Origin: a virus
Lineage: Duplodnaviria; Caudoviricetes
IMG/VR virus record: IMGVR_UViG_3300020042_002183
Location: 1 to 52,659 of that record
Length of the DNA stretch: 52,659 nt
Reading direction: 5' to 3' (one strand)
Shown here: positions 7,846 through 44,719 of the stretch, piece after piece
Position numbering within the stretch: the first letter of the stretch is position 1
Layout: every line of letters begins with the position of its first letter
The notes under the pieces: generated by a model
What the model saw: only the letters and a program-made list of their open reading frames with translations
What the model was told of the DNA's origin: nothing
The model's database searches: none
Translations under genes and position numbers: made by a program

Positions 7846-8085
7846 TTAAGACCTATGTTTGGCTGTTTTTTGCGCAATTTTTTTAGGTTGCGCTACGAAT
7901 TGTTTCCCCGCAGCTTTGCCAGCACGTTTTGCACGAGTTGTCGCAGCGTACTCAGCAGAGCTAAGACTTTTGATCGCAGCTTCTGGTAAATATCGTTCAC
8001 CAGTGTCAGAAGATTTTTTACCACTTTTGGTTCTCCATTTTTGATCACCCCAAGCTTTCAATGATTGCTGAGGCTTTTTAATCAC
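7846..8085 (-). CDS. Small basic protein (DUF5872 C-terminal-half-like)
   Basis: QQSLKAWGDQKWRTKSG...TGERYLP; GTG start at 8085 overlaps the end of the upstream gene. Confidence 0.7.
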   Translation of the reverse strand: MIKKPQQSLKAWGDQKWRTKSGKKSSDTGERYLPEAAIKSLSSAEYAATTRAKRAGKAAGKQFVAQPKKIAQKTAKHRS

Positions 8086-8530
8086 GATAACCACCACCTG
8101 CTTCTTTGTAGCGCTTTGCTACAACCTGTGCTTTACGGGCTGACCATTGACCAGCGCCTGTGCCTGCCGTATTTTCAGACTTAACGGCGTTGAAGATGCG
8201 CTTGCGCAACTCTGGCTTGGTGTAATTGCCTGCTGCGTTTACTGTTGACTTGCCGCCTTCTTTGTAAGAAGCAGTTTTAGCCGCATTTGCAAAATCGCTA
8301 GATTTGGGTGAACCCTTGCTACCAACACTGCGCATTTTCTCGCCAGAACCGGAGGCTATACGTTGTTTCTTTGCGGCAATATTTGCATACAAACCACCAC
8401 CCGCCATCTTGGCATCTTGTTTGACAAACTCTTTGCCAACCTTGGCGGGGATGCCGGTCTTCTTGGCAAACTCAGGGTTGTGCGCAACTGCCGCCATCAA
8501 ACGATGCTGGGCTGGGGATTTACTGGGCAT
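8078..8530 (-). CDS. Basic protein (DUF5872 N-terminal-half-like)
   Basis: NYTKPELRKRI...GQWSARKAQ..AKRYK..GGGY. Confidence 0.7.
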   Translation of the reverse strand: MPSKSPAQHRLMAAVAHNPEFAKKTGIPAKVGKEFVKQDAKMAGGGLYANIAAKKQRIASGSGEKMRSVGSKGSPKSSDFANAAKTASYKEGGKSTVNAAGNYTKPELRKRIFNAVKSENTAGTGAGQWSARKAQVVAKRYKEAGGGYRD

Positions 8531-8765
8531 TTTTCATCTCCATCATGCGATCAAGTTTTTCGCCTAACTTGTCAATTCGATCAAGCACTCGATTGATGTC
8601 AACATGCACCTCGTTCTTGGTAACGTACTCCTTGGCAATTTCTTCGCGGGTGCGATTTAGCAAGATAGTGATGCGCTGAAGTTCAGCAGACTTCTCCCGA
8701 AGAATCCAGCCCATGACTGAGGTAGCCATGGTCAAAACCGCAACCCAGAGTGTGCTCATCTCCAT
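8520..8765 (-). CDS. Hypothetical protein, N-terminal TM helix plus coiled coil
   Basis: MEMSTLWVAVLTMATSVMGWIL...TREEIAKEYVTK. Confidence 0.7.
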   Translation of the reverse strand: MEMSTLWVAVLTMATSVMGWILREKSAELQRITILLNRTREEIAKEYVTKNEVHVDINRVLDRIDKLGEKLDRMMEMKNAQ

Positions 8766-8767
8766 GA

Positions 8768-9172: not shown

Positions 9173-9188
9173 ATATCTCTCCAATTAG

Positions 9189-9212: not shown

Positions 9213-9216
9213 TGGT

Positions 9217-10461
9217 TTAGCAGACTTTGCCGCCGCGCTTTTTGGGCACGGGAGACACAGTCACAGACTTTTCAGTCTTGGTAACTGATTTTGGCTCTTT
9301 ATCAGAGACAGCACCCATTCCCAGCATGCGTTTTGCGCCTTGGAACACGCGCTTAGGTGCGCCGAGAATCATTTCCCTCATCTCTTCGTTGTCAGCGCGT
9401 TCTGCATTCTTTTCAGCTTGCATACGAGCATTCTCACGAGCAATGATTGGGTCATAGTCAGTCTCAGCACCGCCACCGGCCTGCATCTTCCTAACTCCGC
9501 CACCCTTTTTAAAAGTACCAGCCTGACGGTTGGTGCTTACAGGTTTTGATGGGGGTTTATTCCCCTGTGGCATTTTCTGAGGGCGACCATCATCTTGGAC
9601 TGATCCACCCTCAGCAAACTTTTTTGGAGCACCGCCTTTTTTGTAGCCGCCACCCATCATGCGATTGCGCATCATGCCGTCGTCCATCATGGGGTTACCC
9701 ATCATGCCGCCGCCAACCATGCCGCCATCCATCATGGCCTTGCCACCCTTCTTGTAGCCGCCTGCACCAGAAGTCACGCCGCCAGTTGCATAGTTGGACT
9801 TGCCATTGTTCTTGGCAGTAACCATCTTTGTTTGGCCGCTTGTTGACTTGATGATGCCGCCAGCTTTGTAGCCACCTGCACCAGAGCTTACGCCGCCAGT
9901 CTTCATGCCCTTTGTGCGATACGGATACTTTTCATTCAAAGATTTTTCGATATTCTTTCCACGCTCTGTACCAGTCATGTAATGAATATCGTCCGCCACC
10001 TGCATAGCGCCCTCTTTTACATGGTCTTTGACTGACTCAAAAAAGCCTTTTTTATCAGGCATTTTTTTTGTCTCACCGCCAGTAGCCATTTTGCCGCCAT
10101 GTTTTAGCTTGAGCGAAGTGCCTTTACCGCCTTTGTGCTCTTGAGCATCGTGCTGTAAGAAAGCTTTCTTGATCATGGCCTTGTCTTGCGACTTGTCCAT
10201 TTTCCCGCCCTCTTTCATGGTAGTTGGCATGGTAGCCATGGCTTTTTTGCGTTTCGCCATGGATGGCTTTTTAGGAGCCATCGCCATATCCATGCCACCA
10301 CGAGGAGCGCCCAAAGAACCCTTCATAGAGGAGAACGATGGCATTTTGTCGCCCATCATGTCCCCGCCCATGGCTTTCATTACAGCGCCGCCTTTTTTGA
10401 GCTTCAGTTCAACCGAAGGCTCAGTGGTCATCATTTTGACCATTGGTTTGAATTGACCCAT
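9217..10461 (-). CDS. Lys/Met/Gly-rich basic protein with about 13 [YFML]xxGG motifs; putative internal virion protein
   Basis: 414 aa low-complexity protein: LKKGG, MKEGG, LKHGG, MATGG, MKTGG, YKAGG, YATGG, YKKGG x2, FAEGG, FKKGG, MQAGG. Confidence 0.7.
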   Translation of the reverse strand: MGQFKPMVKMMTTEPSVELKLKKGGAVMKAMGGDMMGDKMPSFSSMKGSLGAPRGGMDMAMAPKKPSMAKRKKAMATMPTTMKEGGKMDKSQDKAMIKKAFLQHDAQEHKGGKGTSLKLKHGGKMATGGETKKMPDKKGFFESVKDHVKEGAMQVADDIHYMTGTERGKNIEKSLNEKYPYRTKGMKTGGVSSGAGGYKAGGIIKSTSGQTKMVTAKNNGKSNYATGGVTSGAGGYKKGGKAMMDGGMVGGGMMGNPMMDDGMMRNRMMGGGYKKGGAPKKFAEGGSVQDDGRPQKMPQGNKPPSKPVSTNRQAGTFKKGGGVRKMQAGGGAETDYDPIIARENARMQAEKNAERADNEEMREMILGAPKRVFQGAKRMLGMGAVSDKEPKSVTKTEKSVTVSPVPKKRGGKVC

Positions 10462-10463
10462 GA

Positions 10464-11204: not shown

Positions 11205-12119
11205 TTAAACGCCGGGTGTACCAAACATGGCGCGAGGATCAGTGAAGCCGACATCGTAACGCTCTGTCGCTTTGTAGCGCATAGAGTCAGTCTCGAAGTC
11301 ACCTTCCATGGTCTTCTCCAGCTTGCGACGCATCATGAGCTTCATGCCTTCAGGAGCGTCTGTCTGCACCCACCATGCGGTAGGAGAAGTCAAACGGCTG
11401 ATGATGGCAGCGCCCTCGTCGATCAGACCAATCGATTTGATTGGGTTGATGTCGTTGTTGGCGTTACCAGCACGGAGAACAGACTTCAGCAGAACTTCAG
11501 CTTGCATCTCGTTGCCGGGAGCCACGACCAATTGCTTGGGAACCAAACGGATCTTCTTGCCATTGTTGTCCACTGCTTGGCGAATCTGAATCAGCATCTG
11601 CTCAAGCGATGTCTGGCTCAGGTTGGCGGCGGTGGTCAGCAAGTTGCTGAAAGTACCGTTCACGATTGGGTGAGAGGCGGAGTTCAGTTGAACGCCGTCA
11701 CCACCGGGGTACGAGCTATTGAAAGCACGGTTGAGCACGTTGGCCGACAGTGTTTCCTTGGTCTCGATCAGGGACTGAGCGAGGTGACGGGCATACACTT
11801 GACCGATACGGATGTGGTCGCCGTCTTCCACCAACACTTTGGTCAGCGCGAAGGCGAGGCCATACACGTTGTACACATAGCGTTTGAGGAATAAGACACC
11901 ACCTTGTTGGTACGTCACAGGGGAGCCGTCAGGCAACTGTGGAGCCGCACCGAAACCGTACAGGACAGGTTCTTCGTGGTAGTTACGGGGGATGCCTGTT
12001 TCCTCGCGGAAAACACGCGACCATTCGTCTTGACGAAGGTCGTAGACACCATCAAAGCATTCATTGAGAATGGGTTCGACAATACTTCTAAAGTCGGTAC
12101 TGCGCATTGGAGCGGCCAT
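11205..12119 (-). CDS. Major capsid protein (HK97 fold, Mu gpT-like)
   Basis: 304 aa; position after scaffold and decoration genes; GDGVQLNSASHP, PKQLVVAP, DFETDSMRYKATERY..GFTDPR motifs. Confidence 0.88.
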   Translation of the reverse strand: MAAPMRSTDFRSIVEPILNECFDGVYDLRQDEWSRVFREETGIPRNYHEEPVLYGFGAAPQLPDGSPVTYQQGGVLFLKRYVYNVYGLAFALTKVLVEDGDHIRIGQVYARHLAQSLIETKETLSANVLNRAFNSSYPGGDGVQLNSASHPIVNGTFSNLLTTAANLSQTSLEQMLIQIRQAVDNNGKKIRLVPKQLVVAPGNEMQAEVLLKSVLRAGNANNDINPIKSIGLIDEGAAIISRLTSPTAWWVQTDAPEGMKLMMRRKLEKTMEGDFETDSMRYKATERYDVGFTDPRAMFGTPGV

Positions 12120-12757: not shown

Positions 12758-13300
12758 CTAGCCTTGAAAGATTGGCATAGGAACAGATTGGTCAAAATTG
12801 CCAAATCCTTCGCCTTCAACCTGACCCAATGACTTCCCAGAGCTATCGCGCCTTCCCTGAAGTTGCTCCACTTGAACGCGAACCTTGTCGGCCTCGTTCA
12901 TTGGTTCTTCATGGTGCATGTGCATCATGATGTCTTGGTAAACGTCCATAGGAAGTTTGCACAAGATCATCTCGTTGCATGCGATAAATCCAGTGTACTC
13001 ACCAGCTTTTACACGGTAGTTTTCGTATCCGGGATGTTCGTCCGTTTTCACAGGTACATACCCTTGACGAAACCGCTTTTCAATGGTGTCGTATGTATTG
13101 GTTGTTGATAGCCAGCAAAGATGCCATCCCGGTACATCGGGGGCTTTTGGCAGTGCGCTTTGGTTCCATTCATCGGTAAACATCTTGCGACGCTCGTTTG
13201 ACGAAATGAATTTTTCCTGCGGCGGTTCACGGCTTTCGTCCTGTGAAGAACGAGCTTCTCTACCACCAGCAGAAAGAGATTTTTTGAGACGGGATTCCAT
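12758..13300 (-). CDS. Conserved hypothetical head-morphogenesis protein
   Basis: 180 aa; PGWHLCWLS...GYVPV...MILCKLP, between scaffold and MCP. Confidence 0.7.
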   Translation of the reverse strand: MESRLKKSLSAGGREARSSQDESREPPQEKFISSNERRKMFTDEWNQSALPKAPDVPGWHLCWLSTTNTYDTIEKRFRQGYVPVKTDEHPGYENYRVKAGEYTGFIACNEMILCKLPMDVYQDIMMHMHHEEPMNEADKVRVQVEQLQGRRDSSGKSLGQVEGEGFGNFDQSVPMPIFQG

Positions 13301-13303
13301 GGC

Positions 13304-14284
13304 TTAACCTTTCAGATTTTGTTGACGTGCTTCGATTGCGTAACGTTTGATCATCTTGTTGCGTTTTTCTGAGTCGTCCCAGAACCCCGCCTCCTTCATT
13401 GCCGACACTTGATCCTTGGTCAGCGTAAAGGTGTTGCGGTTTGATCCGCCTGATGAGAACTCACGTCCAGAGTCGCCCACAATATTCCTTCTCGGTTTAC
13501 CAGAGGTCACACCCCTCTCGGTATCTTGATTGTAACGATGCGGCATGTAATTACGCAAGCGTTTATCAAGTTCTGTGAAGTATCCCGAATCGGCGGGATC
13601 AAATCCTTCATTTGTTAAAGCTTCGTCCAGCTTCTTAGCGATCTGGCTGTCCACATCACCCAAGTCAGCGTTGAACCAAGGATTGCGCTCCATCCATGTA
13701 TTTACATTTCGGGCAACCCGTGGGTCAGGAGTAATGCTCCCCTCGTTCTGAGGGCGTACAGCCTGCTTCTTGAACCCTTGCAGTTGTTCAATCTTGCGGC
13801 GGCTCTCGTACCACATGTCCTGTGCTTTTGTTAAAGCTTCGCCGTCTCGTGCGTTGGTAGCCTCGGACAGCTTCATCTTGGCGTACTGAAGGCGCATCTC
13901 TTGGTCTTCAATGGCCTTGTCAAGCTGGGCGAGGTCGGATGCGTGGTGTTTTTTCTCCACAACCATGAGTCGTTCCATTAACTCTTGGTTCTTGCGTTCC
14001 AGCATTTGCAGCTTCACGTCCTTCTCGACATTGGATCGCTTGGCAAGCTCTCGCTTGGCACGGCGTTTTTCTCGCCGCGCTCGTTGGTAATCGGTCTCGT
14101 CAGGAGGGGCTACCTCGTCACCACTTGCGTCTACCTCGCCACCAGCGGCAAGGGAGTCATCGTGGTCTTCATCTTCATGGTCGTCGCCTTGAATGTGATC
14201 GGGCAGTTCAATGACAGCGGAGCCGTCTTGACCTTCGTTGACGACAATCTTCTCGTCGTCTTTGTTGTTCGGTTCTGTGCTCAT
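13304..14284 (-). CDS. Capsid scaffolding protein
   Basis: Acidic N-terminus, long coiled coil, W..RNPWF motif, C-terminal TLTKDQV.AMK.AG helix-loop-helix; between portal and MCP. Confidence 0.75.
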   Translation of the reverse strand: MSTEPNNKDDEKIVVNEGQDGSAVIELPDHIQGDDHEDEDHDDSLAAGGEVDASGDEVAPPDETDYQRARREKRRAKRELAKRSNVEKDVKLQMLERKNQELMERLMVVEKKHHASDLAQLDKAIEDQEMRLQYAKMKLSEATNARDGEALTKAQDMWYESRRKIEQLQGFKKQAVRPQNEGSITPDPRVARNVNTWMERNPWFNADLGDVDSQIAKKLDEALTNEGFDPADSGYFTELDKRLRNYMPHRYNQDTERGVTSGKPRRNIVGDSGREFSSGGSNRNTFTLTKDQVSAMKEAGFWDDSEKRNKMIKRYAIEARQQNLKG

Positions 14285-14893: not shown

Positions 14894-15036
14894 TTTTGTT
14901 TTGCTGGCAGGCTTCCCTTCTTAGATTGCTGTGGGTTGCCCTTGGGTTGTAGGGAAGAGCCATCGAGCTTTTCGCCCATAGCGATGCGTTTGTGCATTGG
15001 AATGCCCATGCTGTCTTGCGGTTTACTGGTAGCCAT
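14890..15036 (-). CDS. Small basic hypothetical protein (48 aa, not in ORF track)
   Basis: MATSKPQDSMGIPMHKRIAMGEKLDG...; AGGAG RBS; stop overlaps next ATG (ATGA). Confidence 0.6.
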   Translation of the reverse strand: MATSKPQDSMGIPMHKRIAMGEKLDGSSLQPKGNPQQSKKGSLPAKQK

Positions 15037-17563
15037 TCATGTCTCCTTGAGGACGGTTAAGGATTGCGGGTATCAGCCGCTCTTGCATAGCCCGTTGAAC
15101 ATCTCTGTTCATCCGCGCCAATTCGATGCGTTCTTTGGTCTCGTTGTCGCCAATAGCGATGGCAAGCTTGAGTTGGTTCTCCTCGTCTGCCAGTGCCATC
15201 TCGTCTTGGTGCTGTTGGCCCTTGAGCGCCATTTCCTGCTGATCTCGTGCAGCCCTGCGCTGGGTCTCCGCCATGCTGGTTTCCTGAAGCACCTTGGCCT
15301 CTGGGGGCAAGGGTTGCTGTGGAGCAAACTGCTGGGCGGTTTGGATCATCTGTGTGATCACAGGCATAACACCAGAGAACACCTTCTCGCTGTCCATAGT
15401 GACGTGCTGAGAGGCCAAGGCGTACAGCTTGTCGATGTTGGCCGTGAAGCGGCTGTCTTCGTACTGGCTGACTGCCCTGCTGTTTTCTTTGTTGACGTAG
15501 CCGTTCATGCGATGCAGATACCACAGCGTCAAGTGCTGCTTGATGTGCTCCAGCAGGGTAGGCACAAACTGAGGAGCCATCAGTGGGTTGCTACCAAAGA
15601 TTGGGTCTTTGCCGAAGTCCAAGTGGGTTTGCAGGTGCGCCAAGTGGTCTTGGGTGATGAAGGCAAAGGCTGGCTGGCCCAGAGCCATAGCCACATTCTC
15701 GTCGGCAGGGCTTCGCTGTTCGGCAGGAGGGGTGTTGACCAGCAGTTCGTTGATGCTTGGGATCTTGATCTGCTTCATGAACCGCTCAATCACAGCCTTT
15801 TGGTTGAATTGCTGCGGGTGCTTCTCCATGATCTGCATGACAGCCTGAATTTGGGCCATACGCTGGGTCTCAGAGAAGATGTGCGGGTCAGAAACAGGCA
15901 CAACGTCCGTGTTTTGGGCAAAATCTTCTTTCCTGATCTGCAAATCCGCCACCAACTCGCCTTTGCGCTGGTCATCCAAGTACCAACGGTTCAAACGGGA
16001 CAGGATCTTGAGCACTCGGGCTTGGCTGGCATGCAAACGAGCGTGGATTGAGCTAAAAACAGCCGCTCCCTGCTCAATCAGCGCCTGAGTCGTGCCAACT
16101 GGGGTGTTAGAGTTGACATCAGCGATCTTTTCCTCAGCCGTGGTGACCACGCCCTTGGCAGCTTTCTCCAAATAGCCCATCAATTGGAACAAAACAGGGC
16201 TTGGCGGGTTAAATGGCATGGGCATGGCGATCTTCTTGATGTCATCGACACCCGGAGCGCCCTCAATCTCCGCAATCTGCGTGACCTCCACCTGCTGAGA
16301 CTGCCCCGAGATCTTGGCTCCCTTGAGCTTGAGCATCGTCGCAGTGTTGTTGATGTGGGCAGAGTCCAGCAATGCCCTCAAAGCGCCTGTAAGGGCCGCT
16401 GAGAGGCCTCCAATCAGGTGCGGCAGGCCAACGGCATAGGCTCCACGCCATGGAATGAACTTGAACTCGACGATCCAGTCCAACTTGGTCATGGTTTCGT
16501 CGCCTTCTTCCCAGTTACGGTACAGGCCAATGACTTCGTTGTCCAACTCGTCAATCATCAGAATGTAAGGAGCCATCTCACCCTTGGTGTAGGGGTCATC
16601 ATCCAGTTCCAGCGAAGTGTAGATATGGAAAACCGTGCGCAATCCGTCCTCGTTGTCCTCAAACTTTTTGCCCTCGATCTTGTTGGTTGCCTTTTGAGCA
16701 CCCGATTGGTCGGGTTCCATAGTGGCACGGATGATGTCAATGTCTCGGTACAGCCCACTGGATATACGGCGCTTAAATTCAAAGGAGGTGATCTCGTGAA
16801 CCTCGGTCACACGCTGGGCGGTGTAAAAGTTTGCCGCTGAAAACGGGACGTAGACACGGTCAATTGGCAGGAACTCGCAGCAGGGACGGGCTTTTTTCTC
16901 GTCGTACCAGAGCTTGATGTACTGAGAGCCGCCCAACGGAAGCTGGGTCAGCATCTGTTCCTGCTCGTCACGGAACTCTTCGATCTGCTCGGTCAACTGC
17001 CAGTTCATATAGTCGCGCTTGCGCTCTGCTATGGCGGTCTTTTCCTCGGTCACCTCGCCCATGATCTTGGTGCGGGTAGGCCCGTCTGGTGGGAACATCT
17101 CTTTAATAGCACGGGCGGCAAAGTCCACGCAGGCTTCAGCCATAACAGGGTGGACGACCTTGGATGCGCCGTTGAAGTTAGCCCCACCGGGAGCATCGTT
17201 GCCCATACCCGTGCGGCGGATGCCTTCCTCGTACTGCTTGTCTCGCTGCTCACGGGCTGACTTGTCCTTGAGCACAAGCTCGACATAGCGCATGGCAGTC
17301 ATGTCCAGCGCCATCAGGTCAGACGACTCAGCCAAGTTGGCGTAGAAGTCCTCATTCTCTTCAGGGCCACCGTAGCCGTCCAAGTTCACCACGGCAGAGC
17401 CGTCAGGCAACTCCTCAATGTCCGCCCCCTTGGTCATCAACTCGATGTCAACAGAGCCGTCAGGGTTCTCCATCATCCCCTGCTGGCCCATTTGAGCCTG
17501 CGGGTCTGGCATGCCCTCAATGAATCGTCCGTCGTTCTGATCTATCGGCATTTGTGTTGCCAT
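15023..17563 (-). CDS. Portal protein
   Basis: 846 aa; GASKVVHPVMAEACVDF.ARAIKE, LPLGGS, PVGTTQALIEQG...SSIHARLH motifs and a Gln-rich barrel-like C-terminus. Confidence 0.88.
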   Translation of the reverse strand: MATQMPIDQNDGRFIEGMPDPQAQMGQQGMMENPDGSVDIELMTKGADIEELPDGSAVVNLDGYGGPEENEDFYANLAESSDLMALDMTAMRYVELVLKDKSAREQRDKQYEEGIRRTGMGNDAPGGANFNGASKVVHPVMAEACVDFAARAIKEMFPPDGPTRTKIMGEVTEEKTAIAERKRDYMNWQLTEQIEEFRDEQEQMLTQLPLGGSQYIKLWYDEKKARPCCEFLPIDRVYVPFSAANFYTAQRVTEVHEITSFEFKRRISSGLYRDIDIIRATMEPDQSGAQKATNKIEGKKFEDNEDGLRTVFHIYTSLELDDDPYTKGEMAPYILMIDELDNEVIGLYRNWEEGDETMTKLDWIVEFKFIPWRGAYAVGLPHLIGGLSAALTGALRALLDSAHINNTATMLKLKGAKISGQSQQVEVTQIAEIEGAPGVDDIKKIAMPMPFNPPSPVLFQLMGYLEKAAKGVVTTAEEKIADVNSNTPVGTTQALIEQGAAVFSSIHARLHASQARVLKILSRLNRWYLDDQRKGELVADLQIRKEDFAQNTDVVPVSDPHIFSETQRMAQIQAVMQIMEKHPQQFNQKAVIERFMKQIKIPSINELLVNTPPAEQRSPADENVAMALGQPAFAFITQDHLAHLQTHLDFGKDPIFGSNPLMAPQFVPTLLEHIKQHLTLWYLHRMNGYVNKENSRAVSQYEDSRFTANIDKLYALASQHVTMDSEKVFSGVMPVITQMIQTAQQFAPQQPLPPEAKVLQETSMAETQRRAARDQQEMALKGQQHQDEMALADEENQLKLAIAIGDNETKERIELARMNRDVQRAMQERLIPAILNRPQGDMNGYQ

Positions 17564-17578: not shown

Positions 17579-20500
17579 TTATTCATTTAGGGGCGATTGT
17601 CTCGCAGTTTTGAATCGCTTCATTAACGGAGACATAGAAGCGCGTTTCTTGTAAGAATTCGATGCTTTAACATTGCCACCCCTCTTGTATTCGCTTGGCT
17701 TCTTTAACTCTGTAATGTAGTCAGAGTAGTCGTCTAAGAACCGCTCGTCGATAGGTTGAGAGATTCTTTCGTTGCGCTTTTCGATTGCCCCAATTGCGGC
17801 GTTGCGCAAGCTTTCCTTGTTGTAGGGCTTGAGGTTTTCACGCTCCATCAACTCACGCTTGATTGGGTTGAGGGTGCGATGAAACAGGGCTTCTACATTG
17901 ATGTTGTCCTCAAGGCGACCAAGGTGCTCCCCGCTGAAATTGGTGTCGTATGGGTACTTGCCAGCAGACGGGGACAGTTGCATGCCGCCGGGGGTGTTCC
18001 GCATGACTGTAGAGCCAATGAAGCCCTTGTCCACGCCGCGCAATGGCTCGTAGGTAGTGGCATTCATCAAGTCTTCAGCATTGAACCCAAGCTTTTCTTG
18101 CGAACCCTTTTGCCAAACGATCCTGTCAGCAATTGCTTTGCGGAGTTCGCCAGAGGGGACTTTGAGTCCTTCCCCTGTGTAGATCTGGTTTAGACCTTCT
18201 GGGTCGGTAAATCCCTTGAACTCGGCAAACGGCTTCTTGCCTTTGTATTTTGCTTCGGGCGGGGTGTAGTTCTTCACCATGTCGCTCAACTCGTCAGCTT
18301 GTTTCTGTGTCAATTCACCAGTCATCAATTTGTAGTTGATCCAGTCAAAGCTGAACTCGCTGTACGGAAGGGCGTAATCCTCGGCACGGTAACCCATGGT
18401 GATCGGAAAGTGGAGCAACTCTCCAGTACCGCCGCTGGCAATGTTTTCCTTTACAGCGGTATCTGCACGAGTCTTGACTCGCTTGGATATTTCTTCACCA
18501 GACGATCCAGCTACGCCTTTGTTCACATGAATAGTGTCGAAAGCATATGGGATGCCGCCATGGGTCACATCAAATATCTGGTTCGGCAGATCGACTCCAG
18601 AAAGCTGAGTTGTACGCACGTTGCGGCTCTGGCTATCCCATGGGATCACCATGCCGCTCCCGCCTTTGAACTTGCTTGGGTCAAACGGATCGTTGGGGTT
18701 TAAGCCAAAAGCAGGTTCATTGACAAAGCGTGTGCCAACCAAGGGGTCAGGCTTTTGCGGTGTGCTTTGGCGATAGCCAACGGATGGCGCTGTTTGCCTT
18801 GCCAGTTCTTGGCGCTTGCCCTCAGCGTCCGCAGCGGCCTGACGCTTGGCACGAGCCTCAGCGCCCAACCGTTTGGCAATGTCTGGCTCTTCGTCAATCA
18901 GGTTGGAAACGATGATTCCCGGCTTGCTCTTGATCACCAAGCTTGGCTTGGCTGCTGCTTTTGCAGCTTTCCCCAACTTGGCCGCACCGCCAATGGCGTA
19001 TCCAGCAGCAGGTGATGCGCTGTTCTGTGGGCTGGGTGCGCCAACATCGTTCTCGCCTTCGACAGCGCCGCCCATGGCGTACACATCGGGTAGCTTGATA
19101 GGTGGCCGCTCAAATCCCTCTGGCAGCACCATGTTGTCAGTCATCTCAAGCTCTTTCCTGAGCGCTTCAATGTACTCCTCTTGACTGCGGCGAGGGAAAT
19201 CACGCAACTCAGAGTTTGGTGACAGTTGCACCAAGCTGGACGGCTCTCCAGACTCGGCCATAGCCCGACTGCGGTGGCGACCTTCATGCCCAGAAATAAA
19301 TGGCATGAGCGGCAATCCCTGCTCTTCCTTGCTGATGTTGAGATACGGCATTTCATTGAAGCCACCCTGCACACGCTGCAAATGTTGGATGTATTCGTCG
19401 GTTGGAACGGTTCTCTTGTCAATATCACCCTGCCTTGCCAATTCCGCAGCTTTGGGGCCAATATCTGACCTTGAGCGATCTTGCAATTCCTTGGCGTACC
19501 TCTGGAAGTCGGCTGGATTCATAGTCATCAAAGCCTTGGCGTTATCTCCAAGGAACGCCTCCCTGAACGCCTGCTCTTTGTACATGCGCTCAAGGTTGGG
19601 GATCTCGTCAGCAGCGCGTTCAACACGCCGTGCGCCGTATTGACCCTTGCTTTGGAGGACTTCCTCTTTGACACGACCAAGTTTGCTTGGAATGATGATG
19701 CTGGGAGCGTTAGGAAGCTCGGAGAGCACGATCTTTTCAGGAACACGGACAGCCTGCTTTGCAGCTTTGCCAGCCTTGCCAGCTTTAACAGCCCCACCGA
19801 ACTGGAACTGCTTGTCCTCAAGCTCCATCCGCATAGTGTCGGGATTGTCAGAAAAGCGGACAGCTTCGTCATCCATGGCAGGCTGTTCCAAAGCCTCCAT
19901 GCCAACGGCTCCAGTGCCCACAGGAACGCCGATCTGCTGATACAGGGGTAACCCCTTCTCGTTGATGTCCTGACGCATCTCAGGGGTCACCTGTAGGCTG
20001 TGGACGGGCTTTGCGTTGAGGTCGTCAAGCTTGGCGTGGAAGATGGCCTTTTCGTCTGGAGACATTGCGGCATAAGCTTGCGGCGTGACCCCCAGCTTCA
20101 TGGCGGCATCACTGCGGCCATCTGGGCTTCGTATACCAATTTCATCGACCTGAACGCCGTACTGCTTGCCCAGCTTGTTAAGGTAGTCAGGCAGCATCTT
20201 GTCGTAGAAGCTCTTCATGCCCTCACCGCCAACTTGAAGGTCAACACCTCCCAAAGCGCCACTGGTTTCTTGGTCATTCAGGATTTTTTCAGCCACCTCT
20301 TTTCCAAGGTGATCCGACAACTCTCCTTGACTAACCGTTTTTGGCTCGGTCAATGCCATGCCGTCTTTTTCTGGAGTGAATGTAATTCTTCCATCGGGAT
20401 CTCTCTCCCAAATGACCGCATCCACATGCTTGCTCAGGTCATATCGGTCAGCCTGCTCTGCGCCTTTTGTCAAAGCAACCCTGTCGTAGCCACCCTCAGC

Positions 20501-23500
20501 GGCCTCTTGCATTACCCTGCGTAGAGCCAGTTCGTGCCAGTCTTTTTTAAACGGGGCATCAGGGAGTTTTTCCTGCTGGGATCTCTCGAACAATTGGCGC
20601 TCCTGCGCCTCCAAGTCATCAACTTTTCGTCGGTGAGAATCGACCATTTTTGTGATGTCACTGAATCGAGCCTCTTTGATATAGACTGGCGCTCCATTTT
20701 CAGTCACAACATTGACAAGACTATCTCCAGAAAGTTCTGGCAAATCAAGGTCGCGGTTTATTGCATTTTTACCTTCAATCCATTTAATACCCTCATCGCC
20801 TTGCTGCGCAATGAAGTCAGAAACCTTCATTTGCTGGCCGTCTATTTCTCCAAACCTTGACTTGTATGCCTCTTTGTAGCCCTGCTTGCGGCCCTTTTGA
20901 TGCCAATCGGATTGGATCTCCTCAACGTGCAAGATCTTTTCGCCGTTGGGGCCAGTGCGGTCACTGACACGGATGCTTGCCAGAATGTTAGGTTCACCAC
21001 CAAAGTGTCCTGCAACGCCGGGAAAGCCCTCACCTTTGGCGGCTGGCATCTTCAGCAATATCTCGCGGTAGTTCTCACCACCGGGTATGGTGAACTTCTC
21101 ATGGCGGGGGCTGGGCCTGCCAATCCCATGATTGATCGATCCATCATCAATCAAAGATAGACGGGCTTCCTCGCGCAACTCTTCCATATTGTTTTTTATG
21201 TTGAACAAGTAGTTTTCTTCAGCCAACTCATTAATGTCGTCACCACGCTCGGCATAGTAACGAGCGCTCTCAACAGCTTTGTCGTAAGCCAGTTTGTCAG
21301 CCAACTCGTCAATCTCTTTTTGGTTTGGGTTGCCTAACACCTTCTCTTCAATCTTGACAGGGGGTCGAGCCTCCAACTCCTTGACAAACTGATCCTTGGT
21401 CATCTTGGGCATGGCCTCGATGTCGGCCAGCTTGCGGCCCTTGAGTTCAGTTGCCTTGATTCCGGGCGTTGACTTGATCTCAGCCATGAACTCCTTGCCA
21501 GTGCCCATGGGACGCTTTAAACCAAGCGCAGCCCTGTCAACAGCGGAGTAGAAGCCCTTACCAGCTTTGGCGGCTTTAACAGCCCCACCGATTTGGAAAT
21601 GCCGATCACCGAGTTCCATACGCATGGTGTCAGGGTTGTCGGAAATGCGGACAGCGCCACCCTGCGCAAACTCAGGTTCAGCGTCTGGGGTGGGATTGAA
21701 CATCTGTTGGTAACGAGCCGTCTCTTCGGGATCAATGTAGGGCTTGAGTTCAACTCCCTTGTCGCGCAGGAAGGCTTGCTCAGTCTCATTAAAAGCATCA
21801 GAGGTGGGGCGTAAGCCCGTGTTGCGAAGATCCTTAACTTCAGACCATTGGCCGCTCCTGACAAAGTCTTGCACGAATGGTATGTAGTCGTCTTTAGGCT
21901 TGGCGTTGCCCTTACCTTTAATCTGAAGGATGCTGTCTGGCTGTGGTTGGACTCCAGCCTCTTTCAACGCTTGCGCTGTATTCTCGTCGGTCAATTCTTC
22001 GACATCAGGGTTACGCCTGCGCCATTGCATAACGTGCTCACGATACTGTGCTTTTTCAGCAGGGGACAAACGAGCAAAAGCCTCGCCGCTGACGGGATAC
22101 GGGTTTTGGTTTGGCTTCACCTCAACCGTTACATGAGGTTCACCCTTGGCATCGCGCAGGCTGTAAATACGGGAGCGACCTTCCAGCACGTCAGGGCAAT
22201 AGCCACCAACGCAGTGACCCATGGTGTCACCCTCGTATTTGAGGGCATCTTCAAGCCTTGTTTCGCTCATGTTTTTTAGAGCTTCGTCAAGGGTATCGCC
22301 AGCAGCCGCCTGCTTCCCGTCTGGGCCAATGATTTTCACGCCTTCTGAATACTCTGATTTGTACGGCTCCGCTCTGAATCCCTCTGGCAAATCCGTCAAG
22401 TCCGCTGGCTTGGTCAACTCAATCCATCGATAGCCCTCGTCTCCATAGTCCTTGTAGACAGGAAAGCCCTCTTGCTGCTTGATGGCGGTATCGCGCATCC
22501 TGATCGCCATCTCCTGATCAAAATCGGCGGCACGGCGAACAGCTTGCTCCATGCTCACCTTGTTCAGTTGTTCAGGGGTAATCCGACCAGCGGCTACATC
22601 TTGACGCAGGACATCCACAACATGGCCGAAGTTAAGACCTCCAATGGCACTGGAATAAATTGGGGTCTCTGGATCTACTTTTGTTATCCAAGGACTCTCA
22701 AGAGCTATTTTTAAAAGCTTGTCATTCATGGAGCCACGGATCGTCATGTAGTTTGTGTATGCATCCTCAAAATCTTTGCCAAAATTACCGCCAATCATGG
22801 CGGCTTTGTCTTTGTAGGGAAGATTTTTTAGAGCACTCACTACGCCTTCTGGCTGATTTTTTGAGACTAAAAATTTGTCAAAGGCATTGTTTATGGCAAT
22901 CTTGGTGTCGTTCAAAACGCGATCTGCGTCTTGCGCTTGAGCAAGTTTTGCTGGCTGGGCTTGAATGTCTCCAGCCCTATAAGACACGATTGCATCATCA
23001 GCCCTTTGCTCATACATGTTGGCTGGATCGGATCTAGCCACCCCACTTTCATCAAACCCGGCCTTCGTCCGCTTTTCAGCCAAATATTCTGGAACGTTAC
23101 GATAATCCGCTAAATCTTCGTCAGGCAGATTCGAGATGTATTTATTGGCAAAATCTCTTTGGGCAAACGCATCTGTTGCTGCGGCTTCCGCCTCCCTTGA
23201 CAAGTTAGCTTTACGCCTCGGATCAACTTCCTCGGCTGCTCTTTGCCTAATCCGTTCAGCACGATCTAAATCCTTTTTGAACTGCTCATTAATCTCATCG
23301 TAGCGGCGATCAATCATCAGGCGCACAGGATCGTCAGGGGTAGCCATTTCCTTCTTGACATAGTTTGTCAAGTTGCTGTCAATCCATTTATCAATTGCGG
23401 CTTCGCCTTTGGTTTGATCTAACTGGTAGCGCACCCTGTCAAGTTGATCTTGATTTAGCGATGGGTCTTTCAGTAAAGCCTCGTGTTTGGAAATGCGTTC

Positions 23501-24295
23501 AGCAGGTGTCTCTCCTGCAATCGTCCGAGTCTTGAGATGCTTCAGATCCTTCTCAACACTGCCTGATGCAAAGTTGCCGCCCTTTGGCTTGACGACATAT
23601 TGTGGAGCCACTGGAGACAGCACCGATGCCAGTGCGCCTTGGCCCTCCACGCCCTTGGCGATCTGCTCTGCGGTCATGCGGCCCAAGCTCTTAGCGCCCT
23701 TGCCTGCCAGTCTTGCGGCGGCGTTGCCAGCCTTGACAGTGCCGTACAGGCCAGCATCAGCAGCCAAGTTGCCAACAAATTGAGCGGCGGCTCCCGTAGG
23801 GCTGTAGGTCAGATCCTTGCCGGGTAGCACCCTCTGGAAGTCCTCAGACGATGGCAGAAACGACCTCTCGCTTACGCCGGGGATCAGCATGCGGCCAAGG
23901 GTCTCGACATCACCGCCCAAACCGCCCACACCAGAGACTAAGCCACGAAAGGCTGACAGTGGTGCATTGGCCGAGGCTTCGCGGTCATTGAAGGCGCGTT
24001 TGCCCTTCATCTGGGGGTAGACACCGAATGCAGGCTGGGAGGCTTGGGATGCTTCGCGGAACGATGGCGCAGTAGCTGGGGGTTGCAATCCAGCCATGAA
24101 GCTCTTTAGATCTACGTCTTTTGGGTTGGACGGAGTTAAGCGAGAAAAGTCGTCGAATTCTTGACGGCGCTCGTCGGCGTAGAAGTCACGAAGCTGCTGC
24201 CTTTGCCGATCAAGCTCTTGCGGTGCTGGCTCAAGCTTCAGTTGTTTTTTGACCTGATCAAGCGTCAAGGTCTGTGGGGCACGAGGGTTGGGCAT
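17579..24295 (-). CDS. Giant polyvalent protein (PcfJ-like, EIQSDWHQ-type and ParB-like modules)
   Basis: 2238 aa; EGDTMGHCVGGY...IYSLRD...PHVTVEV; GGENYREILL...HVEEIQSDWHQKGR; GHEGRHR; modules separated by repeated linkers. Confidence 0.7.
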   Translation of the reverse strand: MPNPRAPQTLTLDQVKKQLKLEPAPQELDRQRQQLRDFYADERRQEFDDFSRLTPSNPKDVDLKSFMAGLQPPATAPSFREASQASQPAFGVYPQMKGKRAFNDREASANAPLSAFRGLVSGVGGLGGDVETLGRMLIPGVSERSFLPSSEDFQRVLPGKDLTYSPTGAAAQFVGNLAADAGLYGTVKAGNAAARLAGKGAKSLGRMTAEQIAKGVEGQGALASVLSPVAPQYVVKPKGGNFASGSVEKDLKHLKTRTIAGETPAERISKHEALLKDPSLNQDQLDRVRYQLDQTKGEAAIDKWIDSNLTNYVKKEMATPDDPVRLMIDRRYDEINEQFKKDLDRAERIRQRAAEEVDPRRKANLSREAEAAATDAFAQRDFANKYISNLPDEDLADYRNVPEYLAEKRTKAGFDESGVARSDPANMYEQRADDAIVSYRAGDIQAQPAKLAQAQDADRVLNDTKIAINNAFDKFLVSKNQPEGVVSALKNLPYKDKAAMIGGNFGKDFEDAYTNYMTIRGSMNDKLLKIALESPWITKVDPETPIYSSAIGGLNFGHVVDVLRQDVAAGRITPEQLNKVSMEQAVRRAADFDQEMAIRMRDTAIKQQEGFPVYKDYGDEGYRWIELTKPADLTDLPEGFRAEPYKSEYSEGVKIIGPDGKQAAAGDTLDEALKNMSETRLEDALKYEGDTMGHCVGGYCPDVLEGRSRIYSLRDAKGEPHVTVEVKPNQNPYPVSGEAFARLSPAEKAQYREHVMQWRRRNPDVEELTDENTAQALKEAGVQPQPDSILQIKGKGNAKPKDDYIPFVQDFVRSGQWSEVKDLRNTGLRPTSDAFNETEQAFLRDKGVELKPYIDPEETARYQQMFNPTPDAEPEFAQGGAVRISDNPDTMRMELGDRHFQIGGAVKAAKAGKGFYSAVDRAALGLKRPMGTGKEFMAEIKSTPGIKATELKGRKLADIEAMPKMTKDQFVKELEARPPVKIEEKVLGNPNQKEIDELADKLAYDKAVESARYYAERGDDINELAEENYLFNIKNNMEELREEARLSLIDDGSINHGIGRPSPRHEKFTIPGGENYREILLKMPAAKGEGFPGVAGHFGGEPNILASIRVSDRTGPNGEKILHVEEIQSDWHQKGRKQGYKEAYKSRFGEIDGQQMKVSDFIAQQGDEGIKWIEGKNAINRDLDLPELSGDSLVNVVTENGAPVYIKEARFSDITKMVDSHRRKVDDLEAQERQLFERSQQEKLPDAPFKKDWHELALRRVMQEAAEGGYDRVALTKGAEQADRYDLSKHVDAVIWERDPDGRITFTPEKDGMALTEPKTVSQGELSDHLGKEVAEKILNDQETSGALGGVDLQVGGEGMKSFYDKMLPDYLNKLGKQYGVQVDEIGIRSPDGRSDAAMKLGVTPQAYAAMSPDEKAIFHAKLDDLNAKPVHSLQVTPEMRQDINEKGLPLYQQIGVPVGTGAVGMEALEQPAMDDEAVRFSDNPDTMRMELEDKQFQFGGAVKAGKAGKAAKQAVRVPEKIVLSELPNAPSIIIPSKLGRVKEEVLQSKGQYGARRVERAADEIPNLERMYKEQAFREAFLGDNAKALMTMNPADFQRYAKELQDRSRSDIGPKAAELARQGDIDKRTVPTDEYIQHLQRVQGGFNEMPYLNISKEEQGLPLMPFISGHEGRHRSRAMAESGEPSSLVQLSPNSELRDFPRRSQEEYIEALRKELEMTDNMVLPEGFERPPIKLPDVYAMGGAVEGENDVGAPSPQNSASPAAGYAIGGAAKLGKAAKAAAKPSLVIKSKPGIIVSNLIDEEPDIAKRLGAEARAKRQAAADAEGKRQELARQTAPSVGYRQSTPQKPDPLVGTRFVNEPAFGLNPNDPFDPSKFKGGSGMVIPWDSQSRNVRTTQLSGVDLPNQIFDVTHGGIPYAFDTIHVNKGVAGSSGEEISKRVKTRADTAVKENIASGGTGELLHFPITMGYRAEDYALPYSEFSFDWINYKLMTGELTQKQADELSDMVKNYTPPEAKYKGKKPFAEFKGFTDPEGLNQIYTGEGLKVPSGELRKAIADRIVWQKGSQEKLGFNAEDLMNATTYEPLRGVDKGFIGSTVMRNTPGGMQLSPSAGKYPYDTNFSGEHLGRLEDNINVEALFHRTLNPIKRELMERENLKPYNKESLRNAAIGAIEKRNERISQPIDERFLDDYSDYITELKKPSEYKRGGNVKASNSYKKRASMSPLMKRFKTARQSPLNE

Positions 24296-37221: not shown

Positions 37222-37232
37222 AAGGAAAAATT

Positions 37233-39562: not shown

Positions 39563-39564
39563 GT

Positions 39565-41157: not shown

Positions 41158-41167
41158 GATTTATTCC

Positions 41168-42244: not shown

Positions 42245-42256
42245 GGTCTTTTTTCC

Positions 42257-44719
42257 TTATGCTGTTACATAGTCCAACGGGGACTTTTTGGCTGGGGGCG
42301 GCAAGTCTTTTGGCTTTGTAGATCTTGCGCGTTCACGGATACTGTGCATCATGTCGTAGAGTTTATCTGTTCCAGCCTTGGTTGAGCCGTTGCCAAGTGC
42401 GGAAACCACATCAGCAGGGAAGACAAACTCGCCGTCAGCCAGCCATGCGGGAATGTCATCAGATTGGCCGTCACCCTCACCTGCGACATGCTTGCCGTGT
42501 TTAAAGTTCTCCCGCCCTTGACTGACAGTTGGCAAGACTCCGCTGGCGTTCAGGGGCATGGTTTTGCCGCCACGAGCCATCAGGGGGGATGCCATGATCG
42601 CTCCACCTCTTGCTGCCAACGCCGTTGGTTCAAAATCTTGAGAGTAAGGCGATGGTGAATATGGGCTGAGTGAATCCGATTCTACGGAGTCTGCTTTTGC
42701 CATCTCAACTGGTTGTCCGTAGTTGTAGTACGGGTTTTCAGCAACAAGGGGATCAACAGGATTCACGGATTCGTTTGAATCTCGATAAGTCTCTGGGCTG
42801 AATTGTTTGGTCATCATTTTTGCCAAGTCACCTTCTCCGCCTTGGCTTGTTGCTTTTTGGACTGCATAAAGCTGAGAGAGTGGGTCGATGAACTTATCTT
42901 TGGACAACCCAATGCTTAATAATTCATCCCCTAAAGGATTGTCTGTGGGCAAAGCGCCCTTTTGCGTACCAAGCTGTGCGCCAGCACCGTTAAAAATACC
43001 GGGCAACGATCCGCTTGATCTTGAGTTGCCTGTTGCGCCGCTTGTCCCTCCAGTGTTTTCTTCTCCGTAGAACCCAGAAGAGTCAGATCCTCCGCCAATA
43101 GAGGGATCGGGGGCGGTATAAATACCAGAACCCCCCACCGATGGGCTTCCAGATCCGCTAAATCCTAGACCAGACAGCACCGAGTCAAGCGCGTTGGCAA
43201 TACTGCTTAAATTTGAAGACTCGGGAACTCCTGTAACGGAATTAACTGCGTTAGAGATTTCGCCGCTGATTGCCCTGCCAGCGCCGCTTACATTCATTCC
43301 CAAACCAACAAGCCCCGGACTTACCCCTAAAGAATTTGCAATAGCGCTGGTCAACGCAGATGTTGCCGCACTGGATGCAGCTTTTCCGTAGTTTCCTTCA
43401 ATCATCCCCGAGACAACACCCATCGGGACACCGAAGTGATTTGCAACCATAGACAACCCAGCGCCAAGTGCTGTCTGTCCTATGGTTGATTTTCCAGAGA
43501 TTAAGCCGTCAGCAAGCTTGGCAGCATTCATCATTAAACTAAAACCGGGCGGAGCTATTGCGCCTACGATAGTTGGGAGATATTGAGTCAAATAGTGGTT
43601 AGCCGTCTGCGACGCAAGAGCTTGATCTATCGTCTGACCCGGAAAGCCGGGGACATCCTTCCCACCATAGCCCATTGCCTGCATTGTTGCCAAGTCGGCA
43701 TAGCTAACCCCCGGACTATGCTGTGGGCCAGTGGCCCCTAAGCCGAAAGCGGTTCCAAACCCTTCGGTGACTGCCATCATTGCGTCAAGCGGGTTCATGC
43801 CCGTGATTGAAGCCAAGGTATTAGCCGCACTGACCGCCTGAGTGTTGGTTAATGGGCCGTCGTAGGCTTGGCTTATTGGGGCTGTGCTGGGTGCAGCAGG
43901 GGTCAGGCCAGTACCAACCGTATCGGCTAACCCCGAAGTAAACCCTCTGCCGTCCCCCAAATTAGCGCCTGCTGCTGCGTAGCCAGCAGAGGCATCAATA
44001 GAATCAATATCATTTACATCCGCAGAGGGATCAGGGGAAGAACCAAAACTACGGCTACCGCCAGTCGTATTGGCTAACCCCGAAGTGAACCCCGTGCCGT
44101 CTCCAACAGCGGCTCCTTGAGCCGCGTCAGCAGCAGCCGCTGCGGCTGCATCAGCGGCGTTAGAGGCGGTTTCGCCGGGGTCGCTTACGCCGTTGGAGTC
44201 AGTGTTAGAACCACCACCACTATCGCTGCTGCTGCTGTCACCACCACCGCTACCGCCATCACTGCCACCGTCACCGCCGTCACCCTGATACGAGGGGACA
44301 TTCTTAGGGCCGTAGTGATCGTGCTCATCCACGCCAGAGTTATGGATGTCCATCCTCTCCAAAAACTCGGCCTGCTCATCCGTCACATAGACAAGACGAG
44401 CCATGGGGTGATCTTCAGACGACTTCCACTTTGCAGGAACGTTTTTAGCAGCTTCTCCGCTGCCCGTTGTGTTTGACACTTCTACATCGTCAGTAGCAAA
44501 AAACGGCAGTCCAGACGGGCCATCAAAAGTTGTCAGGGGCTTTCCGCTTTTCTCGCCCTGCTTTTTCAGCAGTTCGATCTCTTCCTCAGTGATGTACGCC
44601 AGATGCGTCTGCAAGCCATTGTTTGGCTCCCAGTACCTTGGGGCGGATTTGATCTTGTGGTCGCTGTACCACTGCGAACTTGTCCAAGAACCGTTTTTCA
44701 AATTCGATGTATTTTTCAT
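42257..44719 (-). CDS. Ejection-type protein with two LAYIT-like modules and a C-terminal GDGQSDDIPA..GEFV domain
   Basis: 820 aa; LAYITEEEIELLK..GPSGLPFF and LVYVTDEQAEFL..GPKNVPSY; VAGEGDGQSDDIPAWLADGEFVFPADVV. Confidence 0.65.
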   Translation of the reverse strand: MKNTSNLKNGSWTSSQWYSDHKIKSAPRYWEPNNGLQTHLAYITEEEIELLKKQGEKSGKPLTTFDGPSGLPFFATDDVEVSNTTGSGEAAKNVPAKWKSSEDHPMARLVYVTDEQAEFLERMDIHNSGVDEHDHYGPKNVPSYQGDGGDGGSDGGSGGGDSSSSDSGGGSNTDSNGVSDPGETASNAADAAAAAAADAAQGAAVGDGTGFTSGLANTTGGSRSFGSSPDPSADVNDIDSIDASAGYAAAGANLGDGRGFTSGLADTVGTGLTPAAPSTAPISQAYDGPLTNTQAVSAANTLASITGMNPLDAMMAVTEGFGTAFGLGATGPQHSPGVSYADLATMQAMGYGGKDVPGFPGQTIDQALASQTANHYLTQYLPTIVGAIAPPGFSLMMNAAKLADGLISGKSTIGQTALGAGLSMVANHFGVPMGVVSGMIEGNYGKAASSAATSALTSAIANSLGVSPGLVGLGMNVSGAGRAISGEISNAVNSVTGVPESSNLSSIANALDSVLSGLGFSGSGSPSVGGSGIYTAPDPSIGGGSDSSGFYGEENTGGTSGATGNSRSSGSLPGIFNGAGAQLGTQKGALPTDNPLGDELLSIGLSKDKFIDPLSQLYAVQKATSQGGEGDLAKMMTKQFSPETYRDSNESVNPVDPLVAENPYYNYGQPVEMAKADSVESDSLSPYSPSPYSQDFEPTALAARGGAIMASPLMARGGKTMPLNASGVLPTVSQGRENFKHGKHVAGEGDGQSDDIPAWLADGEFVFPADVVSALGNGSTKAGTDKLYDMMHSIRERARSTKPKDLPPPAKKSPLDYVTA

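Follow-up and report, generated by a model that had tools for sequence, protein, structure and literature searches.

A hydrophobic-Gly-Gly-x-Val peptide shared by unrelated proteins of a podophage head module: a candidate address for head-internal proteins

The virus record IMGVR_UViG_3300020042_002183 (Duplodnaviria; Caudoviricetes), analysed here over all of its 52,659 bases and called the window below, is a complete 52.7-kb podophage genome with direct terminal repeats. An earlier note, written from the sequence alone, pointed out a short hydrophobic-x-x-Gly-Gly motif shared by unrelated proteins of this phage and interpreted it as a common address for loading into the head or for processing. 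Our analysis demonstrates that the motif is a genuine mark common to unrelated proteins: it is restricted to head-module and ejection proteins and is conserved in position, which agrees with the first half of this interpretation, while the cleavage half came out weaker. We suggest that head-internal proteins use the motif as a short linear address or anchor peptide, a reading to which sequence comparison gives, in our judgement, a probability of about 45%. That proteins may share a targeting or processing peptide is already known as an idea; this motif, its use at the junctions and tails of polyvalent proteins and the multivalent disordered family described below were not found in the literature searched (titles and abstracts).

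The strict motif was defined as [YFML][AKQ]xGG and sought in 59 non-overlapping open reading frames (ORFs), hand-picked out of the 164 ORFs of at least 80 amino acids (aa), with 2000 composition-preserving shuffles per protein as the chance test. It was observed 26 times vs 4.77 expected, the shuffle maximum being 14. Twelve copies (0.50 expected) belong to a Lys/Gly/Met-rich 414-aa protein (minus strand, 9217..10461), called here the hub, and seven (0.53 expected) to a 2238-aa polyvalent putative cargo protein (minus strand, 17579..24295), called the giant, whose gene sits between those of the large terminase and the portal. Two copies vs 0.08 expected (P=0.0025) occur in a 150-aa basic protein composed of three modules (minus strand, 8078..8530). 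An 820-aa protein of the ejection cluster (minus strand, 42257-44719), named the GEFV protein after its SDDIPA...GEFV domain, has one strict copy vs 0.46 expected, which alone is not significant. When the ORFs are grouped by role, nine candidate internal or ejected proteins hold 23 of the 26 copies vs 2.25 expected, and 11 packaging and shell proteins hold three vs 0.51 expected; the early ORFs (25) and those for tail, fibres and lysis (14) have no copy. Every site listed in the earlier note was found at its residue, though its figure of about 13 copies in the hub has to be reduced to 12 under the strict pattern, looser sites such as KKRGG 407 being additional.

Since the pattern was defined post hoc, the independent test is represented by the relatives, where the motif holds. 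The IMG/VR portal search found 593 relatives among 598 matched stretches, from which 79 distinct loci were kept and 1469 plus-strand ORFs were called. In these loci, hub homologs contain 396 strict copies in 14,892 aa (26.6 per 1000) and giant homologs 213 in 88,557 aa, and neither portal (79 ORFs, 64,629 aa) nor terminase (65 ORFs, 30,419 aa) has a strict copy. Moreover, eight distinct proteins of at least 300 aa, which occupy the slot between terminase and portal and have no BLAST similarity to window ORFs, carry 23 copies vs 3.0 expected (500 shuffles, maximum 9). The frequency in unmatched ORFs located elsewhere is 0.26 copies per 1000 aa.

The relatives also permit the motif to be extended to a consensus of seven residues: hydrophobic, Lys/Ala, any, Gly, Gly, any, Val. 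The Val at position +2 after Gly-Gly (GG), which lies outside the search pattern, occurs at 131 of 287 distinct sites in hub homologs, at 115 of 186 in giant homologs and at 15 of 40 in ORFs without a hit, or at 38-62% of the sites in these groups, compared with 8-15% at other GG sites of the same proteins. Motif sites are related by descent, and binomial p-values are therefore inflated, but the Val contrast still stands. The charge around the motif differs by carrier, being basic in the hub, acidic in the scaffold-like protein and neutral in the GEFV protein; since this context varies and the core does not, the shared element is the hydrophobic-GG-Val core rather than charge.

The hub belongs to a large family without a name (at least 5286 clusters among 8000 scored candidates), for which no match was found in Pfam, PHROGs or NCBIfam. 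In an alignment of 26 homologs with 43-65% identity, the GG pairs at positions 24-25, 85-86, 201-202, 276-277, 285-286 and 320-321 are invariant, and the spacers between them are hypervariable in length and sequence. The earlier note had named a lack of positional conservation among the conditions that would refute its idea, and this alignment shows the opposite. The N-terminus, MGQFKPMVKM.TTEP..LKLKKGG (nt 10381-10461), is invariant, the densest motif array extends over aa 186-330 (nt 9472-9906), and the protein ends in ...KKRGGKVC (nt 9220-9279), where the last residue is its only Cys (codon 9220-9222). The best 120 hub relatives have 7-12 strict copies each (median 10); the FKPM N-terminus is kept in 118 of them and the Cys end in 119. 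The AlphaFold2 model built on the 26-sequence alignment has a mean predicted local distance difference test score (pLDDT) of 52; 248 of its 414 residues score below 50, and a single confident helix spans 338-379. All motif copies lie within low-confidence segments except LKHGG 119-123, which straddles a boundary. The hub is thus predicted to be disordered, and its net charge is about +40 (79 Lys and Arg vs 39 Asp and Glu) at 17% Gly. The proposal of a multivalent hub agrees with this family of proteins, predicted disordered and carrying 7-12 conserved copies.

The giant comprises four modules (approximately aa 1-870, 915-1492, approximately 1515-1735 and approximately 1785-2200), the first of which includes a PcfJ-like stretch at aa 684-730 (27.4 bits vs the Pfam cut-off of 25). 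According to the earlier note, its motif copies lie only at module boundaries. This is true for six of the seven, FAQGG 876, FQIGG 900, FQFGG 1497, YAMGG 1739, YAIGG 1766 and YKRGG 2203; the seventh strict match, LQVGG 1353, is inside a conserved domain and has no downstream Val. All four boundary segments are on the minus strand. Linker 1 (aa 873-915, 21551..21679; EPEFAQGGAVRISDNPDTMRMELGDRHFQIGGAVKAAKAGKGF) contains two motif copies flanking a conserved V-x-I-S-D-N-P-D-T-M-x-M-E-L element and scores 70.9 bits with profile A3; linker 2 (aa 1478-1514, 19754..19864; AVRFSDNPDTMRMELEDKQFQFGGAVKAGKAGKAAKQ) scores 54.5 bits. Linker 3 (aa 1736-1784, 18944..19090) has YAMGG and YAIGG followed by a Lys/Ala-rich stretch, and the C-terminal tail (aa 2200-2238, 17582..17698) has YKRGGNV. 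Lys/Ala-rich stretches come after the giant's linkers, and within the element, compared in 25 sequences, N20, D22, M24 and E27 are invariant and P21 is kept in at least 90%. In linkers 1 and 2 alike, the form of the element that adjoins the motif is V-x-[IF]-S-D-N-P-D-T-M-x-M-E-L.

Relatives encode module 2 of the giant (aa 915-1492) on its own. Ten of their ORFs start at positions equivalent to aa 915-917, directly behind FQIGG 900 with its Lys/Ala stretch, and at least 15 stop at positions equivalent to aa 1492-1496, directly ahead of FQFGG 1497. The C-terminus of these stand-alone proteins reads hydrophobic-K-x-G-G-x-V-x-[IF]-[ST]-D-N-P-D-x-M-x-L-E-L, with about five more residues after it; hence the linker of the window corresponds to a C-terminal tail in the relatives. 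A similar relation is seen at linker 3, whose counterpart in locus L002 is a homologous module that ends its ORF about 20 aa past the aligned point with the tail YAKGG...GGEITADDLILEERML. Some stand-alone tails possess an SDNPD-type element without the Gly-Gly motif.

A profile built on 25 linkers was searched against 1.84 billion representatives (E<=0.001), which superseded a word-index search with a 48-aa linker that gave three proteins only. The profile search returned 249 clusters. One match is probably spurious, P0072 being a Gram-positive surface protein; a supposed likeness of the hub N-terminus to the SDNPDTM element was dropped because the profile gives the hub no score. In 56 of 151 linker carriers the strict copy starts within the last 40 aa, and three classes of tail occur: ...GGKVxISDNPDxMxLEL..KRK, ...GGEITADDLILEERPL and ...GGAVDNGLIKVKNKRKA. 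A sample of 30 carriers was scanned with Pfam: eight chosen for HEMQH, most others taken from the best matches and five from lower down (P0045, P0072, P0116, P0149 and P0151). It yielded PcfJ in 15, LPD23 in nine, ART-PolyVal in six, weak ParB_N in two and nothing in four. The carriers hold PcfJ, LPD23 and ART-PolyVal, and the family therefore belongs to the polyvalent proteins, which are described for phages and conjugative elements by Iyer, Burroughs, Anand, de Souza and Aravind (2017; PMC5512222). The giant and the linker carriers resemble the proteins of that account in being strings of effector-type domains encoded beside portal and terminase genes, and the giant has the marks of the phage type in its position between terminase and portal, its four modules and a PcfJ match above the cut-off. 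It differs from them in that no zincin-like peptidase domain is detectable in the window giant.

Small basic proteins repeat the same arrangement. The two motif copies of the 150-aa protein, MAGGG at aa 42 (nt 8393-8407) and YKEGG at aa 89 (nt 8252-8266), are the borders between three separate PHROG families, which cover residues 1-43, 43-88 and 89-149, and relatives exchange modules at these junctions. The neighbouring 84-aa protein (minus strand, 7589..7843) is a DUF6321 protein (E=2.5e-22) that ends in ...RWKC. In relatives it is usually part of a protein some 174 aa long, in which an N-terminal module, F-K-x-G-G, a middle module, M-K-x-G-G and the DUF6321 module follow one another; at least 2674 such fused forms were found, and in 101 of the 120 listed the motif lies 74-84 aa from the C-terminus. 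DUF6321 has its own gene in the window, starting with MAKKPPSLA where the fused forms have MKKGGVSLA. The small motif carriers are strongly basic. A Lys-Cys C-terminus is common to two head-module proteins: Cys is within the last three residues (...VKC) in 119 of 120 hub relatives, and the unrelated DUF6321 module ends in ...RWKC or ...WKCN in 119 of 120 relatives, so that this end could be a covalent or disulfide anchor point.

In the GEFV protein, AARGG 702 and MARGG 714 fall within the segment ALAARGGAIMASPLMARGG (aa 700-718, minus strand, 42566..42622), just upstream of the SDDIPA...GEFV domain (nt 42386-42514), as the earlier note had it. All 67 distinct relatives of this protein have one to five hydrophobic-x-x-G-G copies at most 70 aa upstream of the domain, and 64 have at least two; the weak window instance thus belongs to a conserved array. 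The GQSDDIPAWLADGEFVFPADVVSALG element (42386-42514) is itself nearly invariant in the 67 relatives and is doubled in tandem in MW202545; the domain weakly matches the tape-measure families phrog_6090 and phrog_25241, and PDB entry 8rk3 at E=1.6. The scaffold-like acidic coiled-coil protein (minus strand, 13304-14284) has LAAGG in its acidic N-terminal part (aa 45-49, 14138..14152), as listed before. This strict copy is facultative, being present in 15 of 57 distinct full-length homologs. The single copy of the 304-aa major capsid protein (minus strand, 11205..12119; Phage_capsid_4 in Pfam), YQQGG 70-74, is conserved but lies within the fold.

The distribution of the motif within the lineage was addressed by shuffle tests confined to annotated head-side genes. 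Strict copies number 18 vs 3.6 expected in MW202545, 8 vs 1.38 in DSL-LC04 and 7 vs 1.56 in HTVC027P, and those with Val/Ile at +2 number 9 vs 0.38, 7 vs 0.14 and 4 vs 0.15, respectively. Caulobacter phage RW (2 vs 2.65) and CRP-902 (2 vs 1.49) have no copy with Val/Ile. In the three former genomes, large genes separate terminase from portal, or small genes with the motif come right after the portal gene; RW and CRP-902 have neither such cargo genes nor the hub. In MW202545, FKKGGKVNW forms the end of a 171-aa protein. Pelagibacter phage HTVC027P and phage DSL-LC04 are cultured members of the lineage, and neither has a hub homolog. Since the motif occurs also in relatives without the hub, the hub cannot be its obligatory receptor. 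At the place of the hub gene, RW (locus L081, 28153-29658) has a 501-aa protein which looks like a homing-endonuclease or Cys-rich insertion, and its large terminase is annotated in two pieces around a methyltransferase gene.

In the reading that we prefer, the motif would lie in disordered linkers and at chain ends and would mark proteins carried in the head: the hub, one or more polyvalent effector proteins, small basic module proteins and one ejection protein. In cargo proteins, x-[I/F]-S-D-N-P-D-T-M-x-M-E-L or some other short amphipathic tail often comes after it. We suppose that the head is assembled without a protease and with a separate scaffold, that single copies bind weakly to a site repeated on some core component of the head (the capsid's inner face or the portal), and that several copies together provide avidity. 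With a tag at every module boundary, modules could be fused, split and swapped without losing loading. We infer that the tagged proteins reside in the virion, that the motif binds there and what it binds. An address is favoured because many copies are terminal tags, because the motif is common to non-homologous proteins in one gene slot, and because the surrounding charge varies and the hydrophobic-GG-Val core does not. It is also favoured by the head plan, which, with its separate scaffold, short capsid protein and no protease found, appears to be of the kind used by phages whose head proteins stay unprocessed.

Several points weigh against an address. The PHROG label "virion structural protein" applies only to the N-terminal module of the 150-aa protein. 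The receptor is a candidate only, the capsid protein and the portal protein (minus strand, 15023..17563; phrog_1216; without a motif copy) being those we name. Among the window genes, none occurs throughout the enriched genomes while missing from the others (of the five loci, three cover part of their genomes only); as no gene tracks the motif, any receptor should be a core head protein kept by motif-less relatives too. A co-fold of capsid, scaffold and giant linker 1, made with alignments, scored 0.09 vs a mark of 0.32 and counts neither way. Furthermore, one tag should suffice for a fused protein, so that copies at every junction fit cleavage at least as well, and the modules occur as separate genes with motif boundaries, as would be expected of polyprotein cut sites. 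Finally, a zincin-like LHEMQHA stretch is present in 13 of 333 large carrier proteins.

A more specific form of the address would be a loading code like that of encapsulins, which we put forward tentatively, as an analogy that is itself somewhat unlikely to hold. The peptide would dock on the inner capsid surface or the portal and load a variable set of polyvalent anti-host effectors, small basic proteins and one ejection protein, with the hub as an organiser similar to CsoS2. Encapsulin cargo-loading peptides are short, Gly-rich and usually C-terminal, and dock on the inner face of the shell by spaced hydrophobic anchors. The present motif is likewise Gly-rich with spaced hydrophobic anchors, and the encapsulin shell has the same fold as phage capsids. 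A short terminal peptide on unrelated cargo is found here too, in 56 of 151 carrier tails, in the stand-alone modules and in the slot proteins. The differences are that the consensus is another one, capsid binding is here only proposed, the head is filled with DNA and the cargo is probably ejected. CsoS2 of alpha-carboxysomes is a disordered, basic protein with many short motif copies and variable spacers that organises the interior of the shell; the hub, predicted disordered, resembles it in basic character, repeated motif and variable spacers, but sequence, shell and cargo are unrelated, and the parallel is an analogy only. If such a code operates, any tagged protein would be packaged and injected.

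The most serious alternative to an address is a maturation cleavage site, with the cut after Gly-Gly or at the Asn-Pro of SDNPD, since the modules between which the motif lies are separate genes in relatives. We consider it unlikely, though worth weighing at length. The cutter would be an unrecognised phage protease, a host protease or the protein itself, and the cut would free effector modules and basic peptides; cleavage could also add to a targeting role, as it does for the capsid-targeting peptide of phage T4. The T4 internal proteins share a short N-terminal peptide, present once per protein and cut by the prohead protease after Leu/Ile-x-Glu. Like the motif studied here, it is a short peptide common to unrelated proteins, and in T4 it directs them into the prohead. 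Here the motif is internal or C-terminal, often multiple and different in sequence, no prohead protease was found, and the T4 combination of a single N-terminal peptide with a gp21-type protease is not seen.

Cleavage gains plausibility from three unrelated protein families that have the motif where their modules join, these modules being separate genes in relatives, and from the small residues before the putative cut with a fixed hydrophobic residue upstream, which resemble viral Gly-Gly protease sites. The invariant N20, D22, M24 and E27 with the mostly kept P21 also fit, as Asn-(Pro)-Asp might cleave itself by analogy with the Asn-Pro self-cleavage of the FlhB/YscU NPTH loop and of reovirus mu1. 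On the other hand, some tails have Leu, Arg or Ser in place of Pro, many copies are 3-30 residues away from the C-terminus, where cutting has no obvious use, and cutting the hub at all 12 copies would yield peptides of about 4 to 85 residues. The position of the hydrophobic residue does not fit either. The adenovirus-type consensus is (M/L/I)-x-G-G/x, with the hydrophobic residue four before the cut. The sites of adenain and of pS273R from African swine fever virus are similar to ours in that basic core proteins and others share hydrophobic-x-Gly-Gly type sequences; here one more residue separates the hydrophobic residue from Gly-Gly, the searches revealed no clan CE protease and cleavage is putative. 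It would thus be at P5, five before the would-be cut with K, A or Q as the fourth, and not at P4 as in adenovirus, ubiquitin-like and coronavirus papain-like protease (PLpro) sites.

The earlier note recognised no prohead protease gene. Apart from an M15 cell-wall peptidase, no protease family was detected by Pfam in the 59 ORFs, by PHROGs in 29 proteins or by NCBIfam in ten sequences (six whole proteins and four giant segments); a divergent or host enzyme may still act. One candidate was the conserved 180-aa head protein (12758-13300), whose His60...Asp71...Cys108 order suggested a hidden clan CE-like protease. It was rejected as a lead: for its fold, predicted at pLDDT 65, Foldseek gave no match to PDB at E<=0.001, the VIA-wide search stayed at Z<5 and concerned the C-terminal helix only, and a profile search of PDB sequences gave nothing below E=0.17. 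Its matches in BFVD are uncharacterised phage proteins only, and His60 and Cys108 are replaced in RW, CRP-902, HTVC027P and DSL-LC04. The other rejected candidate was HEGRH in module 3 of the giant, its only HExxH, as a zincin; the context GHEGRHRSRA, found in 20 of 333 large proteins, looks ParB-like, and there is no Pfam match there in the window.

For polyvalent proteins in general, processing by a zincin-like metallopeptidase (MPTase) domain, frequent but not obligatory, is predicted in PMC5512222, which supports cleavage. The window giant has no peptidase family match and no HEMQH-type motif. In some carriers (P0085, P0032, P0047, P0074, P0093, P0103 and others) LHEMQHA[VI]Q stands about 190 residues after LPD23; because LHEMQHA is found in a minority of carriers, built-in processing is possible in some relatives.

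The motif may instead be a physical element, either a flexible Gly-Gly hinge whose flanking residues hold the linkers extended for threading through the tail, or an aromatic "sticker" by which Lys-rich proteins condense with each other and with DNA in the head, which we regard as improbable. Compatible with it are the hub, predicted disordered, with its charge and Gly content, the Lys/Ala-rich stretches after the giant linkers, the strongly basic small carriers and the fact that the genome comparison yields no receptor gene. However, a plain hinge needs no invariant hydrophobic/GG/Val register across unrelated proteins and leaves the C-terminal placement unexplained, and the motif also occurs in acidic and neutral contexts.

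It is very improbable that the junctions are DNA-level homology patches for recombination and module shuffling, the peptide being merely their translation. Modules are indeed swapped, fused and split exactly at the motif, and linkers 1 and 2 of the giant share one identical run of 17 nt; yet 26 of their 34 residues match and only 12 of 24 comparable codons are identical, and since residues are kept and codons are not, selection acts on the peptide. In addition, the motif copies of the hub and the GEFV protein are not at shuffling points and are nevertheless invariant. That the motif is a chance or low-complexity artefact of Gly-rich proteins is hardly credible: the pattern was defined after seeing the data and the hub has an internal duplication (TGGV.SGAGGYK.GG twice), but the relatives contradict this, and the two most Gly-rich fibre proteins (31 and 43 GG dipeptides) have no strict match, contrary to the Gly-rich background which the earlier note had held able to refute its idea.

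To our knowledge, the choice of proteins for head packing and injection is understood for very few systems, namely T4, P1 and P22. The motif offers a testable peptide code derived from sequence alone in a lineage common in freshwater and marine metagenomes. If the tag is sufficient for loading, it would explain the free swapping of effector modules and give a handle for packaging foreign proteins in heads in laboratory systems; if it is a cut site instead, it would point to an unrecognised protease or a self-cleaving linker. It also marks the boundaries of polyvalent effectors, whose processing and loading are open questions (PMC5512222). The main text of that paper contains the words "linker", "glycine", "low-complexity" and "disordered" zero times and so gives no description of the junction peptide; its supplements might list linker features.

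The head module of the window is read from the minus strand in the order small terminase (26003-26551), large terminase (24598-26010), giant, portal and further genes down to the adaptor, which is of the SU10 type (6506-7576, minus strand). The portal gene is followed by a GroES-like gene (14281-14715, minus strand; Cpn10, E=1.7e-7) and the scaffold-like gene. Two small conserved proteins are encoded between the scaffold-like and major capsid genes, a 230-aa protein between the major capsid and hub genes, and several small basic proteins at 7589-8530 (minus strand). A second late block (38114-44719) encodes a transglycosylase protein, a relative of a "DNA ejection protein" and the GEFV protein.

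A few minor observations concern the conservation and content of this genome. Among 39 relatives the capsid protein has an identity of 88-99% (95% as the mean over columns), as against 40-53% for their scaffolds; for the portal, identity over the 79 loci lies between 57% and 94%. With respect to Caulobacter phage RW, the capsid protein is 77% and the portal 48% identical, so that the capsid is under unusually strong constraint. The GroES-like gene stands between portal and scaffold in every relative examined, including RW, CRP-902, HTVC027P and DSL-LC04. The SU10 adaptor family is matched by two different proteins, at 51318-51953 (E=2.6e-24) and at 6506-7576 (E=9.7e-6); the latter match is just short of the cut-off, and this protein has a weak F5/8 type C match too. 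A 225-aa protein (37107-37784) contains a Tad2-like (Thoeris anti-defence 2) domain (E=3e-19). Lysis genes are found at both ends of the linear record: a holin of the gene transfer agent (GTA) type with three transmembrane segments at 3-293, clipped by the window start, and an M15 peptidase endolysin at 51999-52421.

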